From a virus, in IMG/VR virus record IMGVR_UViG_3300005563_000033, positions 1 through 64,000 of that record: DNA of 64,000 nt; one strand, written 5' to 3'. The position numbers and the translations under genes were made by a program. Under the pieces are notes generated by a model. That model did no database searches. It saw only the letters and a program-made list of their open reading frames with translations, and was not told the DNA's origin. Below, piece by piece: positions 21,842 to 60,518 of this stretch (its first letter is position 1; each line of letters opens with the position of its first letter).

Positions 21842-22213
21842 ATGGAATACGAAGAACTACTAAAGGATGAGAGGTGGCAAGCAAAAAGAAAAGCGATTTT
21901 ACATAGAGACAATCACCAATGTAAGATAAAAGGCTGTAGGTCAAAGAAAGGGCTTGACGTTCATCATTATTTCTACATGAGTAAAGACCTTGCACCGTGG
22001 GAATATTCGGACGACTGCTTATTAACCTTATGCCGGTATCATCATAGTCAGTACCATGATCTTGTTGCGAAAATGGAAGCCAGATTGTGCCTTACTTTAA
22101 AAACCAAAGGCTTCATGCTTGGCGATTTATTGGCCTTATCCACTCTTTTTGACACGGATGCGGAATTTACCCAATCCCTATTAAGCACCTTAAGAGACAT
22201 GCAGAATGGCTAA
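21842..22213 (+). CDS. HNH-domain protein
   Basis: W..KR..IL.RD.HQC...C...LDVHH...PWEY...LLTLCRYHH. Confidence 0.8.
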   Translation: MEYEELLKDERWQAKRKAILHRDNHQCKIKGCRSKKGLDVHHYFYMSKDLAPWEYSDDCLLTLCRYHHSQYHDLVAKMEARLCLTLKTKGFMLGDLLALSTLFDTDAEFTQSLLSTLRDMQNG

Positions 22214-27784: not shown

Positions 27785-29212
27785 ATGAAAAATTTAGATA
27801 GGGTAACTTTAATTATTGTTGATACTTATAGATATGGACGGGCATTGCATAGCCTTAAAATGTCTCTAATCCAAATAAAACCAGCCAGAACCATATTTTT
27901 TACTGACATAGATTTGGATTGTGGACCAGATATAGAGGTAGTAAAAATAGACCCAATTCAGTCAAAACAAGATTATAGCCGGTGGGTAATGCGAGAGCTT
28001 TATAAGCACATTACTACTGAGTTTGTGCTAGTAACCCAGTGGGATGGATGGACGTTAGACGGGGAACTATGGAATGATGAATTTTATGAGTATGACTATT
28101 TGGGTGCCCCCTGGATTTTCGAGCATAATCGCAACATCGCAAATGGTGGATTTTCTTTAAGATCGAAACAACTTTGCGAAATATTAGGGACTGACCCGCT
28201 GATACAAATTACTCATCCAGAAGATCAATCGATAGGTATTCTATATAGAGGTTACTTGGAAGAAACTTATGGAATAAAATTTCCATCCGAAGAACTAGCC
28301 GACACGTTTGCCTTTGAATTAAAATGCCCAGCAACCCCCACCTTTGGATTTCATGGCTGGTTCCATAAACCTTATCAAAAGACCGTCGTTATAAAAAGGA
28401 CTGCTGCAATGGGAGATGTAGTGCAAACGGAAGCTGTCCTTTACTATTTTTTCAAAAAAGGGTATAGGGTGGTTCTGGACACGTTGCCGCAATTCCACAA
28501 TCTTTTTATTCAGCATCAATTCAAAGTACACCGGCCAGAAGAAGTAGACGGGAGAGTATTAGCTACGGCCAAAAAGTATGATCTAGATTTTTCCTACGAA
28601 AGCAAACCAGCACAACTTCATCTTAAAACTTATTTTGAGTTTTGTGAAGTGCCAGAAAGCGAAATGTTACTTCAAAATCCAGTACTACATCTTAATATCC
28701 CGAAAGACCAATCTACTAAATTATTCAAGAAGTATGCGGTCATTCACTACCCTGACCGTAAGCAAAATTCGCGCAATATTCAAGGAAAAATTGATTGGGT
28801 GTCTGTAGTTAAATATCTTAAAACAAAAGGATACGACTCCATCCAGCTAAGTGGCGGTAAAGACATTGAGGGGGCTTTACGAATGCAGACGCCAGGAGAA
28901 CCATTTTTAATGTGGGTATTGCGAGAGGCTGATCTAATGATAGCAATTGACAGTGGCCCGGCGAATATCGCGGTGGCATTTGATGTACCCGCTATCATAT
29001 TTTTTGGGTCTGTTGACGCCTCTCATATATACGCTGACTTAAGTAAGGTTGAGGTAATAGAAACGGAGCCTAATTGTGGCAATAGAAAATGTTGGAGCCG
29101 TGTAGTTGGTTGCGAAGGTATGGAATGTGTGGTAGACGAATCCCGCCCGCCATGCGTACAGTACACCACCGAACAAGTCATAACCGCTATAAATAATATC
29201 ACATGCAAATAA
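27785..29212 (+). CDS. Two-domain glycosyltransferase (DUF5672-like GT-A + GT9 heptosyltransferase-like)
   Basis: VLVTQWDG..YDYLGAPW..NGGFSLRS..PED..FGFHG; RTAAMGDV..IAIDSGPANIAVAFDVPAIIFFG. Confidence 0.85.
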   Translation: MKNLDRVTLIIVDTYRYGRALHSLKMSLIQIKPARTIFFTDIDLDCGPDIEVVKIDPIQSKQDYSRWVMRELYKHITTEFVLVTQWDGWTLDGELWNDEFYEYDYLGAPWIFEHNRNIANGGFSLRSKQLCEILGTDPLIQITHPEDQSIGILYRGYLEETYGIKFPSEELADTFAFELKCPATPTFGFHGWFHKPYQKTVVIKRTAAMGDVVQTEAVLYYFFKKGYRVVLDTLPQFHNLFIQHQFKVHRPEEVDGRVLATAKKYDLDFSYESKPAQLHLKTYFEFCEVPESEMLLQNPVLHLNIPKDQSTKLFKKYAVIHYPDRKQNSRNIQGKIDWVSVVKYLKTKGYDSIQLSGGKDIEGALRMQTPGEPFLMWVLREADLMIAIDSGPANIAVAFDVPAIIFFGSVDASHIYADLSKVEVIETEPNCGNRKCWSRVVGCEGMECVVDESRPPCVQYTTEQVITAINNITCK

Positions 29213-33017: not shown

Positions 33018-35087
33018 ATGCTGTCAGTAGACATATATGGCTCACTTTGTTACTATCCGGATGCTCCTCCGGATTCTTTAATTGAGGGGTGGGACCTGCC
33101 AAGGGAGGAACAATATTGGAGAAGAAAAGAACTGCCAGACTATTTCGACATTATTAACTATGATGAAGATAAAAATGCGATACTTACCCCACAACAGAAA
33201 GCATATGCATCAATAGAGGTACAACGTTGCAAAAAAGGGTATTGGTTCTTTAATAATGGCATTCCTACTTACATAACCGGGAAAAACTATTTCTATCTTC
33301 AGTGGTGGAAATTAGAGGACGATATACACCCAGACTATAGAGATGCAGATAGGAGGTATTTTTTATTCCTTGATAAGTGGGAAAACATTCTATGGTGTAT
33401 TGGCATAGGGAGAGGTAAAAAAAGACGCGAAGGCGCAAGCTCTCAGGCTACATCCAATTTAATTTATGAATGCATATTTTACACTAATAGTAATTGCGGT
33501 CTTGTAAGTAAAACAAATATAGACAGCAGAGACACCTTTACTGACATGGTATCTTTCGGCTACAATCAGTTGCCTGTATTCTTAAAGCCAAGGCAGTTAA
33601 ATAGGGCCGACAGTGTTACTGAACTTGTGTTTGCTGCAAGAGTAGGAAAGGGAGATGTGGCCGCAAAGGGTATGCGGTCTAAGGTAAATTATCGAGCCCC
33701 TGTAGAAAATGCATACGATAGAGGCCGCGTTTCGAGAGGGCTGTGGGATGAGGGCGGAAAATGGCCATTGGATGTGAAGTTCTCTAAATTCATTTCTAAG
33801 GTTACAAAGACAATGGTGAAAGGAGCCAAGCGCGTTGGGTTCGCTGAATGTCCATCAACTGTGAACGAAATGACAAAAGGGGGCGGCGCGGAGTATAAGG
33901 TATTTTGGGATGGAGCCAATCAATTTAAAAGTGGTGGCAAGAAAACAAAAAATAGATTTGTTACTTACTTCACTCCGGCATATGATAATTACGAAGGGTT
34001 TATTGATAAATACGGAATGTCCGTCATTGACGAACCTACAGAGGAGCAATATCAATACCTTGTTGAAAAATGGGTAGTTAAAGACCCTAATACCGGAGAA
34101 ACGGTTTCCGAAATATCGGAAGAAGATATTAGGCTAGGCGCAAGGAAGTATATTTATAGTAGGCGCGAAGGGTTAACGGGAGAGTTATTAGAAGAGGAGA
34201 TAAGGCAAAACCCATGCACTGTACAGGAGATGTTTGAGGCTGCCAATACAGATTGCGCCTTTAATTCCTATAATATCAATAAACGCAGAAAAGAACTTGA
34301 AGAAAAGCCTATATACAAAAGGAAGGTTCTGTTTTATAGAACGCTTGATCAAAAAGTAACCTTCCGGGATGTAGATGAAAAGAAAGACCCATTTTATTGG
34401 AGGATAACAGCCTTCCCGCCCCCGGGCCAAGAAAATATCTATAAAACAAATGCGGGAGTAAGAGAGCCAGGACGTACGCATGATGGAGTTATTGCCGTGG
34501 ATAGCTATTCTAATAGTCAGGGAGGGCGTAAATATGGCTCCAAAGCGTCTGCTTGGATAGGCAGAAGATTTGATATATTAGACCCAGAAAACACAGGGAA
34601 GCCAATAGGCCATCTTTACGGACGACCAGCAGACAAGGCTATACTTCACGACCAGTGTCTCTTAGCGGCAGAATACTTTGGTTTTAAAGTTTTTTATGAA
34701 CACACGGCAGATGATTACCTGTCCCACTATCGGGATAGGGGCAAATCCGGGTATTTAGGGACATACCCCATGAGTTTAATTGATCCGAATAAGCGGCATA
34801 ATGCAGATCGTTTCAAGGGTGTACCTATAACACCATTCAGCCTTACTAAGCAACTAGACAATGGGATTGCCTATTTCAACGACCATTGTGATTTGATAGA
34901 TTTTGAGGAACTACTTGAAAATGCGCTCATTTTTGATCCTTACGATAGGACGGCCTATGACTGCGTGGTAGCATTTCTGATTCTTGTATCTTGCCTGATG
35001 GAGCCTATAAATAAGCCAAGGAAACAAACCGAACCCTTGGTAACAGTCTACGAAAATCCCCTTTATGGTAGAAATTCAATGAATTAA
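33018..35087 (+). CDS. terL: Terminase large subunit (crAss-like type)
   Basis: YITGKNYFYLQW, KKRREGAS, WDEGGKW Walker B, nuclease AVDSY. Confidence 0.9.
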   Translation: MLSVDIYGSLCYYPDAPPDSLIEGWDLPREEQYWRRKELPDYFDIINYDEDKNAILTPQQKAYASIEVQRCKKGYWFFNNGIPTYITGKNYFYLQWWKLEDDIHPDYRDADRRYFLFLDKWENILWCIGIGRGKKRREGASSQATSNLIYECIFYTNSNCGLVSKTNIDSRDTFTDMVSFGYNQLPVFLKPRQLNRADSVTELVFAARVGKGDVAAKGMRSKVNYRAPVENAYDRGRVSRGLWDEGGKWPLDVKFSKFISKVTKTMVKGAKRVGFAECPSTVNEMTKGGGAEYKVFWDGANQFKSGGKKTKNRFVTYFTPAYDNYEGFIDKYGMSVIDEPTEEQYQYLVEKWVVKDPNTGETVSEISEEDIRLGARKYIYSRREGLTGELLEEEIRQNPCTVQEMFEAANTDCAFNSYNINKRRKELEEKPIYKRKVLFYRTLDQKVTFRDVDEKKDPFYWRITAFPPPGQENIYKTNAGVREPGRTHDGVIAVDSYSNSQGGRKYGSKASAWIGRRFDILDPENTGKPIGHLYGRPADKAILHDQCLLAAEYFGFKVFYEHTADDYLSHYRDRGKSGYLGTYPMSLIDPNKRHNADRFKGVPITPFSLTKQLDNGIAYFNDHCDLIDFEELLENALIFDPYDRTAYDCVVAFLILVSCLMEPINKPRKQTEPLVTVYENPLYGRNSMN

Positions 35088-35136: not shown

Positions 35137-37566
35137 TTGTATCCCGAAAATAGATCAGGGGACCCCGGCCCGCAGTCCGGTAATGTACTCAAAAACTTCC
35201 AGTTAACAACGGATAGTAAGAGTAAACTAGATTTCTCCTACGGGAAAAGTATAGCGGAATACATAGTCTCTACAATGGCTGGAACCAATAGCTATTACTG
35301 GTTACGGAACAATCGATATAAGCTCAATAGGAACGCAGCAGCCGGGAAAATAGATATGTCAAAATTCCAAGATCGCTTGGAAATGAACGGGAAGGACAAC
35401 TTTGCAAATTTAAATTGGCAAAGTATCAAGGTGGTCAATACGATCATAGCTCGTTTAGTAGCTCGTGGGATGAATAGCACTGAAAAGATTGTTGTAACCG
35501 CCGTAGATTCCCTTTCCCAAAAAGATAAGCAAGAAGAATATCAAGCCGCCGAATTTTACATGCGTCATCAACAGATGATCCGACAATTAGAACAAGCATC
35601 CGGCCAACAAATCATTCCTACTGGCCAATACATTCCAGAAGATCAAAATGAGCTAGACCTTTGGGCGGCTGAATATTTGGAACTTCCAGAAGAAATATTG
35701 TACGAAAAAACGGTCAATGATATATTAGCGGCGAATGGCTTTTTTGATGTGATAAAGGAAATGCAATTGCATGACAGTGATGAGGTTGGATTTGTTGGTA
35801 CATACACTTGGATGGATGAGTCTGGGGTTATTCACGTAGACCGAGTGAAGCCAGAAAATGCCATCTATTCGTATTCAGAATTTAATGATTTCAGGGATAC
35901 AGCTTGGCGTGGTCGAGCTTTCGATATGAAAATCAGTGAGTTTAGACGTAGATATGGTAAAGAATTTGGTGGCAAATTGACGGAGGAAGAGATTTGGCAA
36001 TACGCTATGACTTCCAAAGAATACCAGCTTGATGATAAAATACGCTGGCTCTTACAATGGAATACAATGATGTTACGACCTTATGACGAATGGAATATAG
36101 GTATGATCCATTTTGAATTAAGGAGCTTGGACAAAGACGATTACACTATCACCGAAACCCTTCAAAATAAAAGAACCTTTGTTGATCGGGGCGTCCCTAC
36201 TAATCTGAAACCCAATCAGGAATATGTAGCAGATGAATATTGGAATATCTATGAAGGGATGTTTGCCCGCGATAAGTGCGAAATGCTGGAATGGGGATTG
36301 AAGAAAAACATGATTCGCCCCCAAGACCCGAAAGAAATAGGTAACGCTGAATTCTCTTATAGCTTCTATATGCATCAAAATTACCAGATGCGTAATGTAG
36401 CTATCCCGGAAAAGATAGAGGAGCCGGTGGATCAAATGATATTGGCTCTTCTGAGGATTCAACAGTGTATTGCCACTATGCGGCCGCCCGGATCAGCCAT
36501 AAACGTAAGGGCATTAAGAGAGGTGGATTTGGGATTAGCAGACGGCACAAAACCTTTTGATGTAAAAAAAGTTTTTGACCAAAAAGGAGACTTGTATTAT
36601 ACGGACATGGATGCGGAAGGGAATATGATTCCCGGCTCTCCCGTAACGGCTGCCCCAGACGACGGCTTTATGAACAAACTACAAGCCCTGATTGCCGATT
36701 ATCAATTCCATCAGGCTGTTTTGCGAGATGAACTAGGAGAAGACCCCAATCTTATTTCCCAAGCAGCCAAACCCCGCGTTACCACAGAGAACATAAATAC
36801 TGCCCAAAATCAAAGCCTCTTAGCTACCGATTACTTTTATGACTCTTGGTTAAATTGCATGAAAGATACAGCCAAGAAAGTATGCTGTTTGATTCATGAC
36901 TCTGTTTATTACGGAGCATCAGTCTATAGGCATCTTTTAGGGGAGCAAGATGTAGAAGGGCGTGTGTTTACTTCTGACATACAAATGTTACCTACGGAGC
37001 AAGAGCAAGCTAACTTACAGGCCATGATGAATGAGATTATCCAAAGTAACCCTGAATTTTTGGTATACTGCGACACATTTAAGGTCATGCGGATGGCTAA
37101 GGAGGATTACAAACTTGCAGAGAAGTATTTGCGTCAATGTCAGAAAAAAATGATTCAAGGCCAAAAAGAACAAGCCGCGCAGAATACACAGTTGGCCGCA
37201 CAACAACAACAGGCAAGCAACCAACAGGCCGCTGAAAATGAAATGCAGATGGAGAAAATGAAGGCGGATTTAGAATCTCGAAAGAATGAGGAGTTAAGTA
37301 GGGCCAAAAAAGAAGAGCTATTTATTAACGGAATATTCTCTGTTTGGACAAAAGGGGGAACGCTACCACCCGAATTACAGGGGGTGGCTCAGGAGCTAAT
37401 CCAAAATGTAGGATTACCTTTATTTGCTCAAAATACAAAAAATAATGTAGCTTTAGCACAAGGAATGCAGGCCATGCAACAATCGGACCAGGGACAACAG
37501 GCCCCATCTGAAGATCAGCAAGAACCTGCCGAAACCGATCAATCACCACAAACTATGCAACAATGA
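35137..37566 (+). CDS. Portal protein
   Basis: 809 aa directly after TerL; long Q-rich C-terminal coil; size and position as in crAss-like phages. Confidence 0.85.
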   Translation: MYPENRSGDPGPQSGNVLKNFQLTTDSKSKLDFSYGKSIAEYIVSTMAGTNSYYWLRNNRYKLNRNAAAGKIDMSKFQDRLEMNGKDNFANLNWQSIKVVNTIIARLVARGMNSTEKIVVTAVDSLSQKDKQEEYQAAEFYMRHQQMIRQLEQASGQQIIPTGQYIPEDQNELDLWAAEYLELPEEILYEKTVNDILAANGFFDVIKEMQLHDSDEVGFVGTYTWMDESGVIHVDRVKPENAIYSYSEFNDFRDTAWRGRAFDMKISEFRRRYGKEFGGKLTEEEIWQYAMTSKEYQLDDKIRWLLQWNTMMLRPYDEWNIGMIHFELRSLDKDDYTITETLQNKRTFVDRGVPTNLKPNQEYVADEYWNIYEGMFARDKCEMLEWGLKKNMIRPQDPKEIGNAEFSYSFYMHQNYQMRNVAIPEKIEEPVDQMILALLRIQQCIATMRPPGSAINVRALREVDLGLADGTKPFDVKKVFDQKGDLYYTDMDAEGNMIPGSPVTAAPDDGFMNKLQALIADYQFHQAVLRDELGEDPNLISQAAKPRVTTENINTAQNQSLLATDYFYDSWLNCMKDTAKKVCCLIHDSVYYGASVYRHLLGEQDVEGRVFTSDIQMLPTEQEQANLQAMMNEIIQSNPEFLVYCDTFKVMRMAKEDYKLAEKYLRQCQKKMIQGQKEQAAQNTQLAAQQQQASNQQAAENEMQMEKMKADLESRKNEELSRAKKEELFINGIFSVWTKGGTLPPELQGVAQELIQNVGLPLFAQNTKNNVALAQGMQAMQQSDQGQQAPSEDQQEPAETDQSPQTMQQ

Positions 37567-49744: not shown

Positions 49745-51147
49745 TGGCCAAACGTTTTCATATACCTACTGTTGGTAATGTGGCTGCCGGAGCCGTGGTG
49801 TTTAATCCGCACTATGACAACATGGCCCGTCAAATGCAGATGCACCAACTGGCCAAAGATCAGGCATTGGGTCAATACTACAGCAAGCTGGAAAATAGCA
49901 TCAATCCGGCAGGCGTTAGGCAACAGGATATGGACGGATGGCAGAAAAAACTACAGGATTGGCAAGCGTTTGCTATCGAAAATAGACAAGCTCTTATTAA
50001 TCCCAACCTAGACAGAGGGCAGGCCATGCGTAGGTTCGGAGCCATGCACCAAGACCTTTTGGGAGATATTCAAAAATCAAAGGCGGCCGCTGCTACAGAA
50101 AGGGCCGTTCAGCCGCTTTTTCTTGACCCGAAAAGAAGGGCTTTAACTACCAATAAAGACCTAGAATACGGACACCGGCTAAGTGCTTCTATTTATGATC
50201 CACAGCATTACAAAGACGATGGAGTCACACCCATAGCACCGGAAGATTTTTCTTTTAACGCGGCCCCTTATGATGTAAACAAACAGAGAACTACCAATAT
50301 TGAATTAACGAGGGGATTGAAGCAAGAAAAAACATATGGTAAGGGGAAGGTAAATGAAGCAGAACTAAAAGATTATGTGCCTTTTACGTTAAAGCATTCG
50401 CCCCAAAACCTACGGGTTATTGGTGATCGGATGGCATCTTTGTATGGGAGTGGGGATCATGGAGACAAGTCCATCCAACAGTATTATGACAACTTCCCTG
50501 TAGACGCCGCCGCTCATGAGCAATTGGATAAAGCCTATCGTTCGGTCTATCCAGAAGATAAAGACGGCATTGGAACGGACCCCAAAAAATTGGCTATGGC
50601 CCATGCTATCCAATTAAACTCCCAAGAAACACAAGGGACAGAGATAAAAGGCTGGTCTCGACCACCACAAGGCCGTCAATTGAGTCAAACCAAGCAAGCA
50701 CAACAGGATATGGCTAACTGGATAAATGGATTCTCAACAGCCATAAAGAACGGGGATGAGGGAGAAATGAACCGGTACGGGGACCTTTTATATGGCGGGA
50801 AAGGGCAGAGCAAGTATCAAGGATTAGAGAAAGGGCCGGTTGAAACTGGTAATCCACCCGGGCTACACCTAATAGAAAATATTAAGCCAGGGGTTAGTAT
50901 TATCCATCAGGATCAGGTTTTCAACCCCACTAAGGGTATTTATGAACCGCAGACCTTACGAGAACAATTAGACCCGAACGACCCGGCACTGGCAGATAAA
51001 CTAGGGAGAATTTATCAAATGCATATGGGAAGTTCTTCCCCGATGAAGAATGTTCTTTTGAAAAGCGCCGTCAATCAACCGCCGCCCCCTAGCACGAAAC
51101 CCGCTCCCGTAACACCCGAAAAAGACCCATTAGGACTATTTAAATAA
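49744..51147 (+). CDS. Ejection (internal virion) protein, middle
   Basis: 467 aa between the small and giant ejection genes. Confidence 0.6.
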   Translation: MAKRFHIPTVGNVAAGAVVFNPHYDNMARQMQMHQLAKDQALGQYYSKLENSINPAGVRQQDMDGWQKKLQDWQAFAIENRQALINPNLDRGQAMRRFGAMHQDLLGDIQKSKAAAATERAVQPLFLDPKRRALTTNKDLEYGHRLSASIYDPQHYKDDGVTPIAPEDFSFNAAPYDVNKQRTTNIELTRGLKQEKTYGKGKVNEAELKDYVPFTLKHSPQNLRVIGDRMASLYGSGDHGDKSIQQYYDNFPVDAAAHEQLDKAYRSVYPEDKDGIGTDPKKLAMAHAIQLNSQETQGTEIKGWSRPPQGRQLSQTKQAQQDMANWINGFSTAIKNGDEGEMNRYGDLLYGGKGQSKYQGLEKGPVETGNPPGLHLIENIKPGVSIIHQDQVFNPTKGIYEPQTLREQLDPNDPALADKLGRIYQMHMGSSSPMKNVLLKSAVNQPPPPSTKPAPVTPEKDPLGLFK

Positions 51148-54100
51148 TGCCTGTAAATAAATACGATATACCAACCTTTGCTTCTCGAATAAAAGAGAAA
51201 TACCCCCAATATAAGGATGTTAATGATACAACGTTAACTAAGGCTATCGTAGACAAGCATCCAGAATATAGAGAGGCGGTTGACTTGTCTGGACTCGACA
51301 AACAGACTTCGCCCGTCGATCAAGGTATTGACAAAACCACGAACAAGGTTAACCAATCTATCCAATTCAATGGGACTTTCCAGCCGGATTTAGAGGGTGA
51401 AAAGAACGGCGTTTATACCAATGACCCCGATTACCAGAAGCAAAAGGCCGACTTCGTAAGCAAGATCATGACGGATCAACAAGGGCGACTACTTTATCCC
51501 GAACAGGATACCAAGGGGAACTGGGTAAACTATTATACCAAAGAGCCTATTGTAAACTTTGATCCACACGAAATGAGGGGGAAAATACTGCAAGTTCCCC
51601 ATGAATATCTCCCGGCAACAGGTGGTAAAAAGTTCATCACCCCCGTTTATAATCAAAAGACAGGAAGTTACGACTTCCCGGATGTGCAAACACCAGATGT
51701 GCCGCATCAAGAAACGCTACCAGAAGCAACCGTTTATGGAGGTAAAAAAGGAAATGGAGAATCTCCTGAATTACAAGGGCTCTCACCTGAAGTAAATTCT
51801 ATACTTGATGAATCCGGCAAACAGGGGGGGCAATTTTCGCAGATTCTAAAAAAGAACCCATCATTAGCGCAAGATATAGACAAAACGCTGAAAAAATACG
51901 GCGAACCTTATGTCCAATCCCTTAAAACAGGTAGTGAAGCGATGAGCAATGTCCTTCAAAAAACTGTAGAGGATAAGTTTGATCTGAATAAACCATTGCC
52001 ACAAGACGTTGACCCGGCTATCTTAAATGGGCATTTGAATGTCTTAAATAACTTTGAGAAAAACAGGAAACAATTTGAGGATACGCAGAAAGAACTACAA
52101 AGACAGGCAGATTTAATAGCCGACAAAGCAAAAAGGACCGGGCAGCCGATTGCTCAACAGGATGTAGATATATTGAATCAAAAATCTGCTAAAAATACAG
52201 CCAATTGGAATGAATATACCAAGGCAGTTAAATATGCGCAGAACTTTGTAGAACAACCGGCTGTAAAAAACTATTTGGATGAATTTAAAAAACGGCAATC
52301 CGGCCTTCAATTATTGGATGAAGTTCGGCAAAGAACCTTCCCAAGTGATATAAACAAGGAAATAAAACAAGATGAATACGACCGAAAAGCCATTGAGGGG
52401 AATCTAAATGCCTGGGATTACGCGAAAACATTCATGGGTAAGGCCGGTGCTGGTATTTCTAATATAGGGGAATCTGTTTTAAAAGCCGCTCCTAGCGTAG
52501 TTACAGGCGGCGCACTAAGATGGTCTCCGGAAGGGGAAGCCAAGATAGAAAGTCTTAATAATGGGGCACAACAATTTTTATCAGCCAATCTCCCGTCTAT
52601 TTCCCAAGAAGCATTACAAGAAATGGACAAGCGGGGAATGGGGCATTTGATTGATGATATAAGCTCTACCTTGGGAGGATTTGCGCCTTATATTATTCCG
52701 GGCGCAGCAGGAGAAGGGTTAGGGGCTAAAGCAGCTACGTTTGCGACTGCCTTAGCAGAAAGTGTTCCTACGGTTCGAAAAGAGGCCGAAAAAGCTGGCT
52801 TAACCGGAGCAGCTTACAATACCTTCATTACGGCCAAGCCTTTGATTAATGCGGCCTTTATGACCTTACTGCCCAATGTGAAATTTGCCAAAGGATTCGA
52901 TAATGATCTAGCTAAATCTATTGTAAATGGGGAATTTAATAGCCCGAAACGATTCTTGTTGAATATGGCATCCAAAGCATTGAAAGACCCTAGCGACATT
53001 GCCCACTTGCAGGCTATGTTATCCGGAACCGAAATAGGAAACAATTTGGTCAATCAAATTACCAATGCCATCCAAAAGGGTCAGGATATTGACAGAGGCA
53101 TTAGCAGAAAAGAAGGACTACCCGTTGACTATTCGAATATAATCAATCCCAGACAGACGGCAGTTATGGCATTGGCTGGTAAAGTGCTGGAAACAATCCC
53201 GACCCTTAAAAATGCTATAGGAGATCGGATAGCCGGAAAAGATATTGCCGAAACGTACAACCATATTCAAAGTAATATAGTCGAACTAGCTGCCCATAAC
53301 TTAGATGGCGTAAGCAAGCAAGTGGACGCCTTAGTGAAGAAAGACCCCGGTAATATATATGCGCAACACCTCAAAAATACGTTACAAGATTTTGCTTATG
53401 CCAAAGCGCATATGCCGGAAGGATTAAATGAGGATCAGCAAGCGGCTATCTTTTCACTTCAGCAAGAAACTTCCAAGGCACAACGGCAACTATCAACTGC
53501 TGACCCCATGTATCAACCTCACCTGCAAAAAATGGTAGAGGAATACAATAAACAAATTGGAGATATCATAAAGAATCCTAATAAAGCTATCGACTATTTA
53601 AAAGATTCTCATAAAGATTTGCAGGAACAAATTTTATCACCTCAAACAGAACAAAATGGCAAAGAAACCGAAGCCAATGCCCAAGCCGAAGGGGTATTAA
53701 GCCAACCAGAAGGCGAAGCTAAGGAAGTAGCTGCAAAATCGCCTTCTTATCTTCTTTCCAGACATGCGGATACAAAAAAAGACGAAGAGGGGAAAGTGAG
53801 CGGACCGAACCAGCATCCATTGTCCGAGATGGGTAAAAAAGATGCCGACGACTTGGCGACTGAAGTGCAAATGCAAGCAGATAAAACCGGCATTCCTATT
53901 ACTAAAATCGTTCACTCCGGGTTAGAGAGATCAGCGGAAACAGCCAATAGAGTGGCAAACAGGGTAAAGGCTCGCACTGTGAGTGATCCTGATTTAAACA
54001 CATGGGCTAATGGAGATTTCGACAATATTTCAGACCAAGAGTGGAAGGATGTACAAGCATGGTATGGAGAGCATCCTGACGAAGTAGTTTACGATGGGCC

Positions 54101-57100
54101 TATTGAAAAATTCAAAGGGTGGAAATTGGATGAATCCTTAAATCAATATGCCAACAGAACAATTGGAGCGCATGCTAAATACGAAGGCGAACCGGCCAGT
54201 ACCCTATTAATCGACCATAGCAATAACATGATGGTCATGGATGCTTATCGTAAAAATGGTGGCAAATGGGATAAAAAGGCTATCCAATATTATCTGAATG
54301 CCGAAAAGCCGGAACCGGCATCCTTAGTGAAAGGAGAAAAGCCAAAGATCACCATATCGACACCAAATATTGTTAACGTAAAATTGAAAGAAAATCCAAT
54401 TATTGACTTAAATAATGAAAACCATGTATCTAGTGTTATAAAAACACAATGGGATGCCGTAAATGAAGGTAAGCTATTGGATAATGAGGGAAGTTCTATA
54501 CAAGGGCCAAATAACGGCATCGCATCTAATGGGCTTGAAAATTTGACAGATAAAACATGGGGACACGGATCGGATAGGTTGACTGTAAAAGACAGTCTAA
54601 AAGCATTACAGAGTTTGATGTCAGGTGGTAAATTCACAGGGTGGTTTGGGAAAATAAAAGAACCGGAAGGCGGGATGAATGTTCGTGATTATGGGGCTAA
54701 ATTTGTAGTGGCTACGGATGATGTAGAAGCCATACATGGAGAGAAAGGAACAGGTAAGTTAAATCCTAAAGAAGTTGAGATAATATTGAATGATCAATTA
54801 TCTCCTTTTGGCCAATCGCTAAAAAATGAGTACCCTGAATTTACTATTAAAGATTATAATGGGAAAGAATTTAAACAAATAAAACCAAAAGAAAATGTAT
54901 CAGTCGGACAAACAGCGCCGCTGGGCACACACGAAAACGGGGACGGAGGCACTGGGAGGACCAGCGAAAGTAGCGGAGTGGGACCAAGCCAGCAAGGGGA
55001 AGGACCTGCCGGAAACGGCCCCAAAAAAGAAGAAGATACGGGTCAAAAAGAAAAGCCAGTAAGCGACGAACTGCCTTTCATTGAAGAAGAAGGAGACAAT
55101 GAGTTTACCAGCACCAAAAATGAAGTAACCAAGCAGAAAGTAGAAGACTCTGGACTCAGGCCAGCAATGGAAGAAGCCGCTAGGGATTTTGGTAGTGTGT
55201 GGAAAGATGCCCAAAAGAAACTAAGTAAGGGTTTTGACATTGAAGGACTACTGAAGGGATTAGCCAAAAAGCCAAGGGCTGTGACTGACCTTGAAAACGC
55301 TATGATCCTTTTTCATCAAAACGTAAAAGAGGCGCAATTGGATGCCGCTAATAAGGAATTGGATCAGGCCAGAAAAGATGGCGACCGGGATAAATGGAAT
55401 GAAGCCTATGGAACGAGAGCAAGATTGTTAGACGACTTGCAAGATATTTATGACGTAGATAAGTCTATCGGTCGTGAAACGGCTAGAGGTTTGAATGCGC
55501 GGAAAATGATGGCAGACCGTAGGTTTTCGTTGGTGAATATGCAAATGGAGAAGCGGGCGGCAGGCGGCGGTGAACCATTAACCGAAAAACAAACGGAAGA
55601 GGTTCAAAAACAATATGAGGCTATAAAACAGGCTAAAGAGGCTCTTGATGCAAGAGTATCTGAATTGGAAAAAGAGAATGTCAGATTGAAGGCAGAAAAA
55701 TCCGTTCAGGGCCAACGGGGAACAGGCGGTCGTACGAAGAAAACAAAAGAGCAATACGCTCAGGACAGGAAAGATATTGTCCAAAAAATGAGGGATGATC
55801 TACTTAAAGCGGCCAAAGGCGGAGAAGGTTTAACCTCATCCATTCCCTTGGCGGCCCAATTGAAGGCCATTGCTCCGCACGTAAAAAAATTAGTCGAAAG
55901 TTTCATAGAGCAGGGTATTGATAAACTGGAAGATATTACCAAGGGGATTCATGATCTTTTAAGTCCTTCCATTCCTGAGTTAGAAGAAAGGCATATTCAT
56001 GACCTGATTGCCGGTGAATTCAATGAGCCCAAACCTAAATCCGGCACACCTTCAAAGGCACAACAGATAAAAGAAGAGGCTAAGGTACAAAAGTATAGAG
56101 CAACCGATCCAGTATTAATGAAAGCTCAGGCCGAATATGAAAAAGCAAAAGAAACATTCTTACAAAATATAAAGAAGGATCAACTTAAGGCCAGAACCGG
56201 ACTTCAAAAGATACAGGATGCTTTCCTTAAATATGAACGCTTTGCAAAGCTATCCAACCCTATTACCCTTGGCAAACTGTCAATGGCGGCGCTCACTAGA
56301 CTATCCACCACTCCCCTAGAAGAAGGCGTAGGCGCTGTTTATTCTAAATTGCTGCCAGGATTAGCCGCCAAAGCTCCGGGCGAAGCTGGCGCTAATGTAA
56401 AGGCATTGGCTAAAGGGTATAAAGCAGCTTTCATGAGAGGGTTGGATGATGCGGCAACCGTTGTAAAAGGTGGTAAAACAGATATAGAAGCCGTCTACGG
56501 AAAGAAGGGATATTTACCCCCCGAAGCCATAGATTTCTTCGGACAACTTCACAGTGCTATTAAAGCCCCGGTGAAAAGGTTTGCCTTTGAGCGGTCTTTC
56601 GAAAAGAGAATGGCCAATAATATTAAGAATGGGACGCCTATTGACGGAATGGTCGAGGCGCGTATTGCAGTGGAAGCCTATAAAGACGCCCAACGATCTA
56701 TATTCATGCAAGATAATGCCGTATCTCGCGGGTGGTCGATGTTGATAAATGGGCTGGAAAGAACGGATACGCCGGGCGGCAAAGAATTGGCAACGGCTAT
56801 GCAGTGGCTAATCCCGTTTGTGAAAGTGCCTACCAATATCGTAGGAGAGACGGTATCGCATGTAGCCGGACCTGAAATAGCATTGGCTAAAGTGCTTCAT
56901 GCCGGATTGACGAAAGGGCTTAAAAATTTGTCACAAGATGAAGCAGAAATGATCTTACGTAACCTTAAAAAAGGAACCATAGGACACGGAGCATTGATGT
57001 TGGGTTATTTGAATCCACAAGCATTTGGAGGGTATTACCAAAAGTATGAAAAACGAGACCCGGAAGATGTAAAATTCGGAGCGGCAAAACTTTTTGGAGT

Positions 57101-57554
57101 GAAAATACCTGCTTGGATGCTAGAAGCTCCTATACTCCAGACTATGCAATTGGGGGCAACCGTTAGACGTGTTAAAGACACAATGGTAAAGGGCCAGCCC
57201 AAAGGAATAGGAGAAGGGATGTGGGCTGGTGGGCTTGGGTTATTGGAACATGAACCCTTAATAGATGAGCCAGTAAGATTAGGCGAAATGTTGGGTAAGA
57301 GCAATGAAAGGCAGTACTTCATGGGTGAATTAGCCAAAAGCACGTTGGTTCCCGCTGCGGCTGATTATGCGGCAAAGGTGAGTGATCCGCTGGATACAAG
57401 ACCAGTGGGAGAAAGATTAATGGACCCTGAAAACAAAAGAAAGCCGACTACTATACCAGAACATATTGAAAGTGCCATACCGGGATTGCGTGAAAATGTA
57501 GAAGAAAAAAAACCAGTACCGCACAAACAAAGACAACATAAACCAGCTAGTTGA
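51147..57554 (+). CDS. Giant ejection/polyvalent protein with histidine-phosphatase domain
   Basis: 2135 aa; helical with Gly/Ala hydrophobic patches; RHADT..PLSEMG..HSGLERSAETA..LIDHS; C-terminal IPFVKVPTNI. Confidence 0.8.
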   Translation: MPVNKYDIPTFASRIKEKYPQYKDVNDTTLTKAIVDKHPEYREAVDLSGLDKQTSPVDQGIDKTTNKVNQSIQFNGTFQPDLEGEKNGVYTNDPDYQKQKADFVSKIMTDQQGRLLYPEQDTKGNWVNYYTKEPIVNFDPHEMRGKILQVPHEYLPATGGKKFITPVYNQKTGSYDFPDVQTPDVPHQETLPEATVYGGKKGNGESPELQGLSPEVNSILDESGKQGGQFSQILKKNPSLAQDIDKTLKKYGEPYVQSLKTGSEAMSNVLQKTVEDKFDLNKPLPQDVDPAILNGHLNVLNNFEKNRKQFEDTQKELQRQADLIADKAKRTGQPIAQQDVDILNQKSAKNTANWNEYTKAVKYAQNFVEQPAVKNYLDEFKKRQSGLQLLDEVRQRTFPSDINKEIKQDEYDRKAIEGNLNAWDYAKTFMGKAGAGISNIGESVLKAAPSVVTGGALRWSPEGEAKIESLNNGAQQFLSANLPSISQEALQEMDKRGMGHLIDDISSTLGGFAPYIIPGAAGEGLGAKAATFATALAESVPTVRKEAEKAGLTGAAYNTFITAKPLINAAFMTLLPNVKFAKGFDNDLAKSIVNGEFNSPKRFLLNMASKALKDPSDIAHLQAMLSGTEIGNNLVNQITNAIQKGQDIDRGISRKEGLPVDYSNIINPRQTAVMALAGKVLETIPTLKNAIGDRIAGKDIAETYNHIQSNIVELAAHNLDGVSKQVDALVKKDPGNIYAQHLKNTLQDFAYAKAHMPEGLNEDQQAAIFSLQQETSKAQRQLSTADPMYQPHLQKMVEEYNKQIGDIIKNPNKAIDYLKDSHKDLQEQILSPQTEQNGKETEANAQAEGVLSQPEGEAKEVAAKSPSYLLSRHADTKKDEEGKVSGPNQHPLSEMGKKDADDLATEVQMQADKTGIPITKIVHSGLERSAETANRVANRVKARTVSDPDLNTWANGDFDNISDQEWKDVQAWYGEHPDEVVYDGPIEKFKGWKLDESLNQYANRTIGAHAKYEGEPASTLLIDHSNNMMVMDAYRKNGGKWDKKAIQYYLNAEKPEPASLVKGEKPKITISTPNIVNVKLKENPIIDLNNENHVSSVIKTQWDAVNEGKLLDNEGSSIQGPNNGIASNGLENLTDKTWGHGSDRLTVKDSLKALQSLMSGGKFTGWFGKIKEPEGGMNVRDYGAKFVVATDDVEAIHGEKGTGKLNPKEVEIILNDQLSPFGQSLKNEYPEFTIKDYNGKEFKQIKPKENVSVGQTAPLGTHENGDGGTGRTSESSGVGPSQQGEGPAGNGPKKEEDTGQKEKPVSDELPFIEEEGDNEFTSTKNEVTKQKVEDSGLRPAMEEAARDFGSVWKDAQKKLSKGFDIEGLLKGLAKKPRAVTDLENAMILFHQNVKEAQLDAANKELDQARKDGDRDKWNEAYGTRARLLDDLQDIYDVDKSIGRETARGLNARKMMADRRFSLVNMQMEKRAAGGGEPLTEKQTEEVQKQYEAIKQAKEALDARVSELEKENVRLKAEKSVQGQRGTGGRTKKTKEQYAQDRKDIVQKMRDDLLKAAKGGEGLTSSIPLAAQLKAIAPHVKKLVESFIEQGIDKLEDITKGIHDLLSPSIPELEERHIHDLIAGEFNEPKPKSGTPSKAQQIKEEAKVQKYRATDPVLMKAQAEYEKAKETFLQNIKKDQLKARTGLQKIQDAFLKYERFAKLSNPITLGKLSMAALTRLSTTPLEEGVGAVYSKLLPGLAAKAPGEAGANVKALAKGYKAAFMRGLDDAATVVKGGKTDIEAVYGKKGYLPPEAIDFFGQLHSAIKAPVKRFAFERSFEKRMANNIKNGTPIDGMVEARIAVEAYKDAQRSIFMQDNAVSRGWSMLINGLERTDTPGGKELATAMQWLIPFVKVPTNIVGETVSHVAGPEIALAKVLHAGLTKGLKNLSQDEAEMILRNLKKGTIGHGALMLGYLNPQAFGGYYQKYEKRDPEDVKFGAAKLFGVKIPAWMLEAPILQTMQLGATVRRVKDTMVKGQPKGIGEGMWAGGLGLLEHEPLIDEPVRLGEMLGKSNERQYFMGELAKSTLVPAAADYAAKVSDPLDTRPVGERLMDPENKRKPTTIPEHIESAIPGLRENVEEKKPVPHKQRQHKPAS
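53656..53700 (+). CDS. Nested +1-frame basic peptide MAKKPKPMPKPKGY
   Basis: A-rich start context; inside a low-complexity linker of the giant gene. Confidence 0.4.
   Translation: MAKKPKPMPKPKGY
54895..55062 (+). CDS. Nested +1-frame small basic protein, 55 aa
   Basis: MYQSDKQRRWAHTKTGTEALGGPAKVAEWDQASKGKDLPETAPKKKKIRVKKKSQ; preceded by AAACAAATAAAACCAAAAGAAA. Confidence 0.65.
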   Translation: MYQSDKQRRWAHTKTGTEALGGPAKVAEWDQASKGKDLPETAPKKKKIRVKKKSQ

Positions 57555-59071: not shown

Positions 59072-59940
59072 TGCCAAGCGAATACTCTATACAAACCATT
59101 TTGTCTATCGCTGATATTAGTCAATATTTGGCCAATGCCGATAATGACAAACAAACCTTTTTCAAAGGCGGAACGCTTGATCCACTATTGGGCAGAACTA
59201 TTTATAGGATAAGAAGGTCTTTGGGATTAAGATTTCAGGCCGCTCCGAACGATACAACTTTAAGAGGAACAGCAGAGTATCTTTTATCATTATGTGGGCC
59301 TTATGCCTTACAAGCAAAGCAAATATTGAACAATCTGGGCCAATCTCCCCCAGTGATAACAGGACCAAATAACCAAAGCGTTCTCGTAGGGCAGACCGGA
59401 ACGTTTAGCGTATCGGTTACAGGAACAGCACCATTCGCTTATCAGTGGTATCTCAACTCTGTTCTTATACCGGGAGCCACAAGTAGTTCTTATTCTAAAA
59501 CAAATGCGCAGCTTACTGATAGTGGTGGGGTATATTTCGTAAAAGTAAGCAATCCTGCCGCACCTTCAGGAGTATTTAGTAATACAGCTACTTTGACGGT
59601 TACGGCTGTATTACAGGGCTTTTTCGCTTATATGGACACTGATCCAGGCCCAGACTTGCAAGCCAATTTAGACCCATTCACTTATCAATCGACTTTTGCC
59701 ATAACGCACAATGCCCCCTTTGTAATAACCTTACCGGGAGCCAGTACGCCGAATAAATACCTTATTGTAAAAGTTCCTATTGGAGAATCTGTAAAATCAA
59801 CGTGGTTCAATACTCCGCTGAATAATGGCACTATACCGGATAGCGTATGGCAGTCATTGATACAATTTGGCGGATTTTCATATTATTACACGCGGGTAGC
59901 TGCCAGCATGGACACTTCACAAACTTTAACTCTTTCATAA
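59071..59940 (+). CDS. Ig-domain structural protein (fibre adaptor-like)
   Basis: PVITGPNNQSVLVGQTGTFSVSVTGTAPFAYQWY..DSGGVYFVKVSN (I-set-like). Confidence 0.75.
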   Translation: MPSEYSIQTILSIADISQYLANADNDKQTFFKGGTLDPLLGRTIYRIRRSLGLRFQAAPNDTTLRGTAEYLLSLCGPYALQAKQILNNLGQSPPVITGPNNQSVLVGQTGTFSVSVTGTAPFAYQWYLNSVLIPGATSSSYSKTNAQLTDSGGVYFVKVSNPAAPSGVFSNTATLTVTAVLQGFFAYMDTDPGPDLQANLDPFTYQSTFAITHNAPFVITLPGASTPNKYLIVKVPIGESVKSTWFNTPLNNGTIPDSVWQSLIQFGGFSYYYTRVAASMDTSQTLTLS

Positions 59941-60518
59941 TGAATGAATTTGTAGACATAAAAGGATTCGAAGGTTTTTTTAAAATCAACTCTATTGGTG
60001 AGGTATTTAGTTATGACAGGGTTGTAAATACTGGCAACGGATTTTACATTATGAAAGCAAAAAAATTAGCCATTGTTATAAGACAAAAATACCCGTCAGT
60101 ATCATTATGCATGAATGGCGGAAGAGTCAAGAAATTTCTCCACGTGTTATTGGCAGAGCATTTTATTCCCAATCCGAATAACTTTAAATTTGTTAGGCAT
60201 TTGAATGATGATAAATTAGATTTTCGGTTGGAAAACCTGGCGTGGGGTACGCATGCCGATAACGCCGCAGACGCCATAAGAAATGGTAAATTTGTCTTTT
60301 TGAAGCCGGAAAATAATCCTCAAACTGGCAAGAAAGGAAAATTAAGTATGTTTTATAGGGAGAAGAGCGGTCGCGCAAGACTAGTCTTAGATTTAAATAC
60401 TGGCATTTTTTATGAAACTGCGAAAGATGCTGCCGAAGCAAAAAATGTTAAATACAAGGGACTGGCTAGAAAATTATTAGGGCGCAGAAAAAATAATACA
60501 GGAATGGTTTATGTATAA
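59940..60518 (+). CDS. NUMOD4-HNH homing endonuclease
   Basis: DIKGFEGFFKINSIGEV, HVLLAEHFIPNP..VRHLNDDKLD..LENLAWGT..N; ATG overlaps the upstream TAA. Confidence 0.85.
   Translation: MNEFVDIKGFEGFFKINSIGEVFSYDRVVNTGNGFYIMKAKKLAIVIRQKYPSVSLCMNGGRVKKFLHVLLAEHFIPNPNNFKFVRHLNDDKLDFRLENLAWGTHADNAADAIRNGKFVFLKPENNPQTGKKGKLSMFYREKSGRARLVLDLNTGIFYETAKDAAEAKNVKYKGLARKLLGRRKNNTGMVYV

Follow-up and report, generated by a model that had tools for sequence, protein, structure and literature searches.

A Giant Phage Gene and Its Phosphatase Domain

The DNA analyzed here, which we call the window, comprises the 64,000 nucleotides at positions 1 to 64,000 of the IMG/VR virus record IMGVR_UViG_3300005563_000033, and it carries a single open reading frame (ORF) of 2135 codons that encodes what we refer to as the giant protein. 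Profile searches and a predicted structure identify, near the middle of this protein, a domain with the branch-1 histidine phosphatase fold of the phosphoglycerate mutase (PGM) superfamily and its set of catalytic residues. From the N terminus, the giant protein consists of a leader, an N module, an effector slot occupied by the phosphatase, an extra module, a linker, and a C module (Table 1), an architecture that we derived from BLAST maps and region statistics over homologues. The start of the gene overlaps the stop codon of an upstream gene of 467 amino acids (aa) in the sequence TAATG and its own stop shares bases with the TTG at which the next gene starts, so that the giant gene is one member of a tightly packed operon.

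His_Phos_1 is the only domain that Pfam recognizes in the giant protein. The N and C modules matched no Pfam, PHROG, or NCBIfam family, and a language-model Atlas look-up of both returned only viral hypothetical clusters and one LPD38-bearing cluster, a weak link to the C module. We found no signal peptide, no hydrophobic or transmembrane segment (the maximum Kyte-Doolittle 19-residue mean is 1.16), and no fibre-like repeats in the giant protein. A reading of the protein as a virion RNA polymerase was rejected, given that it has neither a DxDGD-type (D[FY]DGD) motif nor a transmembrane segment.

Identity and Fold of the Domain

The Pfam model His_Phos_1 (PF00300) matches residues 869-1017 of the full giant protein with an E value of 9.9e-13, and the segment delimited by a first-pass annotation of this DNA scores 54.6 bits on its own (E = 1.5e-14), where the curated cut-off is 21.7. 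Scanned over its full 77,352 bases, the virus contig yields a single His_Phos_1 copy, at 53.5 bits. The domain is also matched (E = 8e-8) by PHROG 12933, which groups phage proteins of unknown function. Alignment A2, which joins the domain (aa 860-1090) to 34 short relatives and to four stretches cut from related viral contigs, gave an AlphaFold2 model with a mean predicted local distance difference test score (pLDDT) of 90.8 and a predicted template modeling score (pTM) of 0.83. Among the PDB matches listed by Foldseek for this model, all are histidine phosphatases or phosphoglycerate mutases, at E values of about 1e-10, and the A2 profile retrieves PhoE from the PDB with an E value of 4e-41. 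The domain has the alpha/beta/alpha sandwich of PhoE and of the cofactor-dependent phosphoglycerate mutases (dPGMs). Together, the Pfam score above its cut-off and the model with its matches bear out the PGM-superfamily fold that the first-pass annotation had proposed. The peptide strings that it quoted from positions 53745-54300 are exact in the translated frame of the 2135-codon ORF; the last strand of the fold ends near residue 1063, however, making the domain slightly longer than that interval.

The structures and profiles nearest to the domain are those of phosphatases (PhoE, PspA, CobC, and GpgP), not mutases. The SixA model TIGR00249 is not reached, with 19.4 bits against a cut-off of 74.5, and the predicted structure has a cap helix (model residues 104-116), an element missing from SixA, which is a minimal core.

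Active Site and Conservation

We mapped residues through the profile alignment to PhoE and through alignment A2, and all codons were verified on the DNA. Site counts refer to 102 related domains that were aligned from proteins of at least 500 aa, here called the giant-protein copies. H873, the predicted phospho-accepting nucleophile, and R928, the arginine of the phosphate pocket, are kept in 102 of 102 copies, the second active-site histidine H1024 in 98 (96%), W953 in 97 (95%), R872 in 85%, and both E996 and R1004 in 100%. The catalytic set of two arginines and two histidines recognized in the first-pass annotation is therefore present and conserved as R872, H873, R928, and H1024. Its two departures from the usual motifs were likewise recovered by the PhoE profile alignment and A2: A874 replaces the glycine of RHG, as it does in PspA, which also reads RHA, and T952 occupies the position of a glutamate.

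That glutamate matters to the chemistry, for the canonical proton donor lies in the L-x-E segment (Glu83 in PhoE and Glu89 in dPGM). Its position is occupied by T in 57, S in 16, P in 14, A in 9, and E in 5 of the giant-protein copies. Because glutamate is absent from nearly all 102 of them, its loss is a trait of the whole clade and not a lesion of the window copy. With threonine in place of the donor across the clade, leaving-group protonation and hydrolysis of the phospho-enzyme would need another residue or be slow. Proton donors vary across families of the histidine phosphatase superfamily, as a recent structural paper describes (PMC12051542). The best candidate for replacing the glutamate would be Asp879, which lies at the position of the pocket asparagine (Asn16 of PhoE), is invariant in 22 aligned full-length proteins, and at that position has counterparts that read D in 68 and N in 18 of the 102 copies.

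In 15 of the 102 copies (P0047 and 14 others), the arginine of the RH motif is replaced and the histidine kept, with E in 6, H in 3, A in 3, D in 1, and two unlisted. Some of these lineages may have altered or lost activity.

In alignment A1, which contains the window protein and 21 homologues, 47 of 193 phosphatase columns (24%) are invariant, compared with fewer than 1% in the N and C modules, which are mosaic and fall to a minimum identity of 17-18%; the members of A1 were chosen for having the phosphatase, so that this contrast is partly built in. The phosphatase is still the best-conserved part of the giant protein, and the alignments show strong purifying conservation of the domain.

These data bear on whether the domain turns over a substrate at all. 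A pseudo-enzyme, or a phosphate-binding module that holds, for instance, a DNA end, phospholipid head group, or phosphoprotein, or one that is no more than a structural bead, would account for T952 in place of glutamate and D879 in place of asparagine, for the variability (T/S/P/A) of the glutamate position across the clade, and for the loss of R872 in some copies. We nevertheless regard this explanation as quite unlikely, given that the nucleophile and the pocket arginine are universal, that the second histidine is nearly so, that the domain outdoes the rest of the protein in conservation, that proton donors are known to vary in the superfamily, and that an independently diverged, permuted clade (see below) retains the RHG motif, the pocket asparagine, the pocket arginine, and the second histidine. 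The loss of glutamate could also signal a phosphotransferase or mutase, in which, without the water-activating residue, a long-lived phospho-His873 would pass its phosphoryl group to another acceptor as in the cofactor-dependent phosphoglycerate mutases. The fold and catalytic core are as in dPGM, the LNTW motif aligns with the L-x-E segment of dPGM and PhoE, and the loss is clade-wide. The dPGMs themselves, however, retain the glutamate, the nearest relatives are the phosphatases named above, and the mutase equivalog models score far below their cut-offs, making this the least probable of the alternatives and, in our view, a very improbable one. On its sequence features, the domain is a predicted branch-1 histidine phosphatase that is most likely catalytically competent.

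Homologues and an Exchangeable Slot

A word-seeded search yielded, besides the window protein, 100 homologous proteins of 1290-3700 aa, all of them metagenomic, and several had been automatically named "broad specificity phosphatase PhoE" by JGI. Local profile searches found the canonical domain in 25 of these homologues, a permuted form in 22, and neither in 53, a distribution that agrees with the suggestion in the first-pass annotation that the domain might be a variable insert. The C module is also present in homologues without a phosphatase and in those with an ART-PolyVal or LPD1 domain instead; among the 53 without a phosphatase, 4 carry Pfam ART-PolyVal and 1 carries LPD1. In P0041, the homologue for which this placement was established, ART-PolyVal (814-885) lies directly upstream of the common C module and so occupies the same slot. 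On these domain maps, the phosphatase is a swappable module in a modular giant protein. Related-locus searches with the domain alone and with P0041 returned no loci.

An exhaustive HMMER search with the domain through 1.84 billion cluster representatives gave 128 matches (clusters at 50% identity), so the clade is not rare. The 45 best matches (E < 1e-10) are nearly all 500-4400 aa long, and the first stand-alone proteins, with about 200 aa, enter the results only at an E value of about 1e-9. In searches of GenBank phages, the full giant protein had no tblastn match, and the domain alone matched only two unannotated Listeria phage fragments.

Two side observations concern other modules. P0148 and P0151 (about 525-563 aa) carry a phosphatase domain of the Glu-less subfamily followed by repeated helix-turn-helix-like segments, and they may be fusions of a phosphatase to DNA-binding repeats. 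The extra module of the window protein (aa 1075-1250) has no stand-alone relatives, is shared only with P0068 among 225 proteins, and had no PDB sequence match. It contains W-G-H-G-S-D, which resembles the H-G-S NAD-binding motif of H-Y-E ADP-ribosyltransferases; its nearest named Atlas clusters, Arr and DarT, score 0.75-0.77, below the useful range. An ADP-ribosyltransferase here is a tentative lead prompted by the H-G-S motif.

A Circularly Permuted Form

In the 22 permuted homologues, the profile built from canonical copies matches with its C-terminal half first and its N-terminal half second, the two directly abutting. The permuted copy begins at Y-R-T-L-D-Y-G-D, the counterpart of L-N-T-W-x-x-G-D, and continues through the E-x...R helix and the T-H-S strand to V-R-H-G-E-T-E-D-N ... 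S-S-D-x-P-R-T, so that its new termini precede the strand before the L-x-(E/T) loop. An AlphaFold2 model of the copy in contig L008 (alignment A3) reached a pLDDT of 91.7 and a pTM of 0.88. Foldseek retrieved no histidine phosphatase with this model; an exhaustive aligner gave 16 best PDB matches, every one a histidine phosphatase whose alignment begins at about chain residues 62-85. NCBIfam models align their positions 3-67 with residues 135-202 of the permuted copy. A circular permutation is supported by the swapped profile halves and by these partial structural matches.

The permuted clade keeps the four catalytic elements noted above, with threonine at the glutamate position. In a tree for which the permuted copies were re-ordered for alignment only, all 22 form one clade (support 0.97), and the canonical window copy falls in a separate clade. 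Gene order around the giant gene is the same in the canonical contig L002 and in the permuted contigs L006, L008, and L009. As judged from profiles and gene order, the canonical and permuted topologies alternate at one slot of one scaffold, with the window copy canonical, and both points are new; we found no paper that combines circular permutation with a histidine phosphatase. Two topologies at one slot amount to an experiment of nature on how a textbook enzyme fold can be wired.

Genomic Neighbourhood and Leader

The giant gene lies in a block of structural genes (Table 1). Three small genes separate it from the muzzle-like gene upstream, and it is followed by two small genes, a gene for an Ig-domain protein, an HNH endonuclease gene, and a long fibre gene. 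The synteny, including the muzzle-like gene, is kept in L002, L006, L008, and L009. We regard the source as an uncultured, podovirus-like marine phage whose tail genes are distantly crAss-like; with its muzzle and ring matches below cut-off, it would be a remote relative of the Crassvirales at most.

Table 1. Positions of the genes, modules, and residues discussed; coordinates are those of the window unless a contig is named.
Feature	Position	Strand	Remarks
Primase-helicase			upstream of large terminase
Large terminase (TerL)	33018-35087		upstream of giant gene
Portal	35137-37566		upstream of giant gene
Capsid-like protein			after portal
Ring-like protein			after capsid-like gene; sub-threshold match to crassvirus Ring_2
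Muzzle-like tail protein, 1325 aa	44470..48447	+	phrog_14478 "virion structural protein" E 1.7e-37; crAss_MUZ_C E 6.4e-4 (below cut-off)
Giant ORF, 2135 aa (P0002)	51147..57554	+	single ORF; 100 metagenome homologues
N-terminal leader, ~47 aa	51147..51290	+	KYP.YKD ... K[YH]P.Y; common to 24 giant proteins and Maribacter phage Panino
N module, aa 1-855	51147..53711	+	no known family; mosaic among homologues
Predicted histidine phosphatase (His_Phos_1) domain, aa 866-1063	53742..54335	+	canonical strand order; profile and model
R872-H873	53760..53765	+	RHA motif; R-H of RHG
D879-E880	53781..53786	+	D879 at PhoE Asn16, phosphate-pocket position
R928	53928..53930	+	PhoE Arg59 equivalent
T952-W953	54000..54005	+	LNTW motif; T952 at PhoE Glu83 position
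H1024	54216..54218	+	HSNNMM motif; PhoE His151 equivalent
Extra module, aa 1075-1250	54369..54896	+	shared only with P0068; no assigned fold
G/P/S/E-rich linker, aa 1251-1310	54897..55076	+	from composition
Conserved C module, aa 1311-2135	55077..57551	+	no known family
HNH endonuclease with NUMOD4 motif	59847-60518		HNH_3 E 4e-9; phrog_59; between Ig gene and fibre gene
Permuted domain, homologous giant gene	L008:12698-13330		profile and model
Permuted domain, homologous giant gene	L006:12656-13282		profile
Permuted domain, homologous giant gene	L009:13694-14320		profile

Among the phages in GenBank, Maribacter phage Panino alone showed any similarity to the muzzle-like protein; it is a podovirus that infects a marine flavobacterium (PMC11590407). 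A giant protein of 1829 aa occupies the same position in Panino; it has no Pfam domain and no similarity to the window protein beyond the leader motif, and we rejected it as a homologue in favor of a positional analogue. The leader stands at the extreme N terminus of the giant proteins that share it, some of which are otherwise unrelated, and Panino is its only match among GenBank phages. These occurrences make the leader a candidate virion-incorporation tag. In the Panino genome (PP540027), the leader forms a separate 88-aa ORF (L010:21708-21974) that begins at the stop of the upstream gene and is out of frame with the annotated giant CDS0069 (GTG start at 21890), and CDS0070 is annotated on the opposite strand. 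The split likely reflects a frameshift or a mis-called start.

Two further genes of the window deserve mention. The HNH ORF overlaps the end of the Ig gene and is missing at that place in L002 and L008, and it therefore looks like a homing endonuclease insertion. A 475-aa protein encoded at 27785-29212 combines a DUF5672 match (E = 1.1e-17) with a weak heptosyltransferase-like (Glyco_transf_9) match at its C terminus and may be a phage-encoded glycosyltransferase.

Proposed Role

We propose that the domain is an active phosphatase module of a cargo or polyvalent protein that enters the host together with the DNA, a reading to which we assign a probability of roughly 55%. We infer ejection from the position of the giant gene after a muzzle-like gene, from the beads-on-a-string architecture of the product, and from the ART-PolyVal domain in the corresponding slot of P0041. 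The giant protein would be packaged in the virion and, at infection, threaded out partly unfolded; the domain would then refold in the host, where His873 would accept the phosphoryl group of a phosphomonoester held by Arg872, Arg928, and His1024. The substrate could be either a phosphoprotein of the host or a phosphorylated small molecule, whether metabolite or signal.

The position of the gene also suits a different proposal, that of a virion-associated enzyme acting outside the cytoplasm, either as a component of the tail or central fibre or retained in the envelope, which would dephosphorylate capsule, lipopolysaccharide (LPS) core, or lipid-linked sugars to aid adsorption or penetration. 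The giant gene does come after the muzzle-like gene and before the Ig and fibre genes, a review of crassviruses mentions phosphatase domains annotated in tail spikes (PMC10136315), and a permuted relative faintly matches the NCBIfam model PmrG, an LPS core heptose-phosphate phosphatase (E = 1.4e-4, a match far below the cut-off). The giant protein, however, lacks the signal peptide, hydrophobic segment, and fibre-like repeats that would suit a surface component, the fibre genes are separate and lie downstream, and both the long disordered linkers and the exchange for ART-PolyVal suit intracellular effectors better. A surface enzyme is consequently unlikely in our judgment.

Several points weigh against delivery of an active phosphatase into the host as well. 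Packaging, ejection, and a host target are deduced from position and architecture. The matches that define the crAss-like tail genes both fall below their Pfam cut-offs (crAss_MUZ_C with 20.5 bits against 27 and Ring_2 with 20.2 against 27), and a full-length profile of the giant protein searched against the PDB matches only the phosphatase, its N and C modules matching nothing solved, crassvirus virion proteins included. Searches of GenBank phages found no cultured relative with the giant protein. The replacement of the canonical proton donor by threonine and of the pocket asparagine by aspartate could cripple turnover, and R872 is replaced in 15% of the giant-protein copies. Finally, all NCBIfam equivalogs (CobC, PspA, GpmB, SixA, and others) score far short of their cut-offs, the best scores being 40 bits against 326 for the RNase H/acid phosphatase model, 37.6 against 162.9 for CobC, and 24.7 against 350 for PspA; with none of the characterised enzyme families above threshold, the sequence does not point to a substrate.

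The fold, the catalytic set, the RHA and Glu-to-Thr departures, and the variable-insert character put forward in the first-pass annotation have all held, and its further suggestion of an enzyme injected at entry to dephosphorylate host proteins, nucleotide signals, or envelope substrates, possibly as counter-defence, is carried forward as the conditional reading given here. A bolder and rather doubtful version of that reading would make the domain a member of a large, undescribed clade of Glu-less histidine phosphatases, found almost only in giant phage proteins and in two interchangeable topologies, that is injected to erase a host phospho-signal. Targets of this kind might include a phosphohistidine relay, a kinase-based defence, or an alarm carried by a phosphorylated nucleotide, and the erasure would come at the very start of infection.

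Proteins that enter with phage DNA are at work before the phage expresses its first gene, which makes them prime candidates for host takeover or for disarming defences. Known injected proteins include ADP-ribosyltransferases, methylases, RNA polymerases, and nucleases, and a phosphatase of the PGM superfamily would add new chemistry to this toolkit; we found no paper that places a histidine phosphatase among ejected virion proteins. Loss of the proton donor throughout the clade, in turn, poses a mechanistic question that is within reach of simple enzymology.

Comparison with Known Systems

Among the closest known systems are PhoE (YhfR) of Geobacillus stearothermophilus (PDB 1h2e and 1ebb), the phosphoserine phosphatase PspA/iPSP1 of Hydrogenobacter thermophilus (4ij5 and 4ij6), CobC, and the mycobacterial GpgP. 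Identity is only about 20%, the window domain is embedded in a 2135-aa phage protein instead of standing alone, and relative to PhoE it has threonine at Glu83 and aspartate at the pocket asparagine. The permuted modules share with it the same kind of carrier, the same slot, and threonine at the glutamate position; the window copy differs from them in its ordinary strand order and in the aspartate of its pocket. Stand-alone phage histidine phosphatases (PHROG 12933 and, in the viral structure library BFVD, proteins from Tenacibaculum phage PTm1 and Acinetobacter phage ME3) have the same fold, and small relatives share the L-R-x-W-x-x-G motif without glutamate, but these are separate genes for proteins of about 200 aa of unknown function and not modules of giant proteins. 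The matches in BFVD are, correspondingly, separate histidine phosphatase genes, with no giant virion protein among them.

As to the carrier, the polyvalent proteins of phages and conjugative elements are proposed in a survey to be injected with DNA, and T4 Alt and P1 DarB are examples that have been studied experimentally (PMC5512222). Like them, the window protein is a giant multi-module protein encoded with late or structural genes, and some of its homologues carry ART-PolyVal or LPD1. Unlike the described polyvalent proteins, it has N and C modules that fall in no described family, and its packaging is a prediction. In its main text, the survey names 2H phosphoesterases, pyrophosphatases, and RelA/SpoT domains and no histidine phosphatase or PGM-type domain (PMC5512222).

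The cargo proteins of the Crassvirales offer the second comparison. In crassviruses, the genes that follow the muzzle gene encode cargo proteins, which reside in the capsid and tail and are believed to leave the particle in a partly unfolded state (PMC10136315). The window protein has no sequence match to solved crassvirus proteins, no two-barrel polymerase motif, and no transmembrane helix, and in these respects it is unlike the crAss001 cargo (C1, C2, and the virion RNA polymerase subunits). It resembles that cargo in being large, and its gene would hold the corresponding place in a podovirus structural block if the putative muzzle gene upstream is one; its disordered linkers are compatible with passage through a narrow tail.

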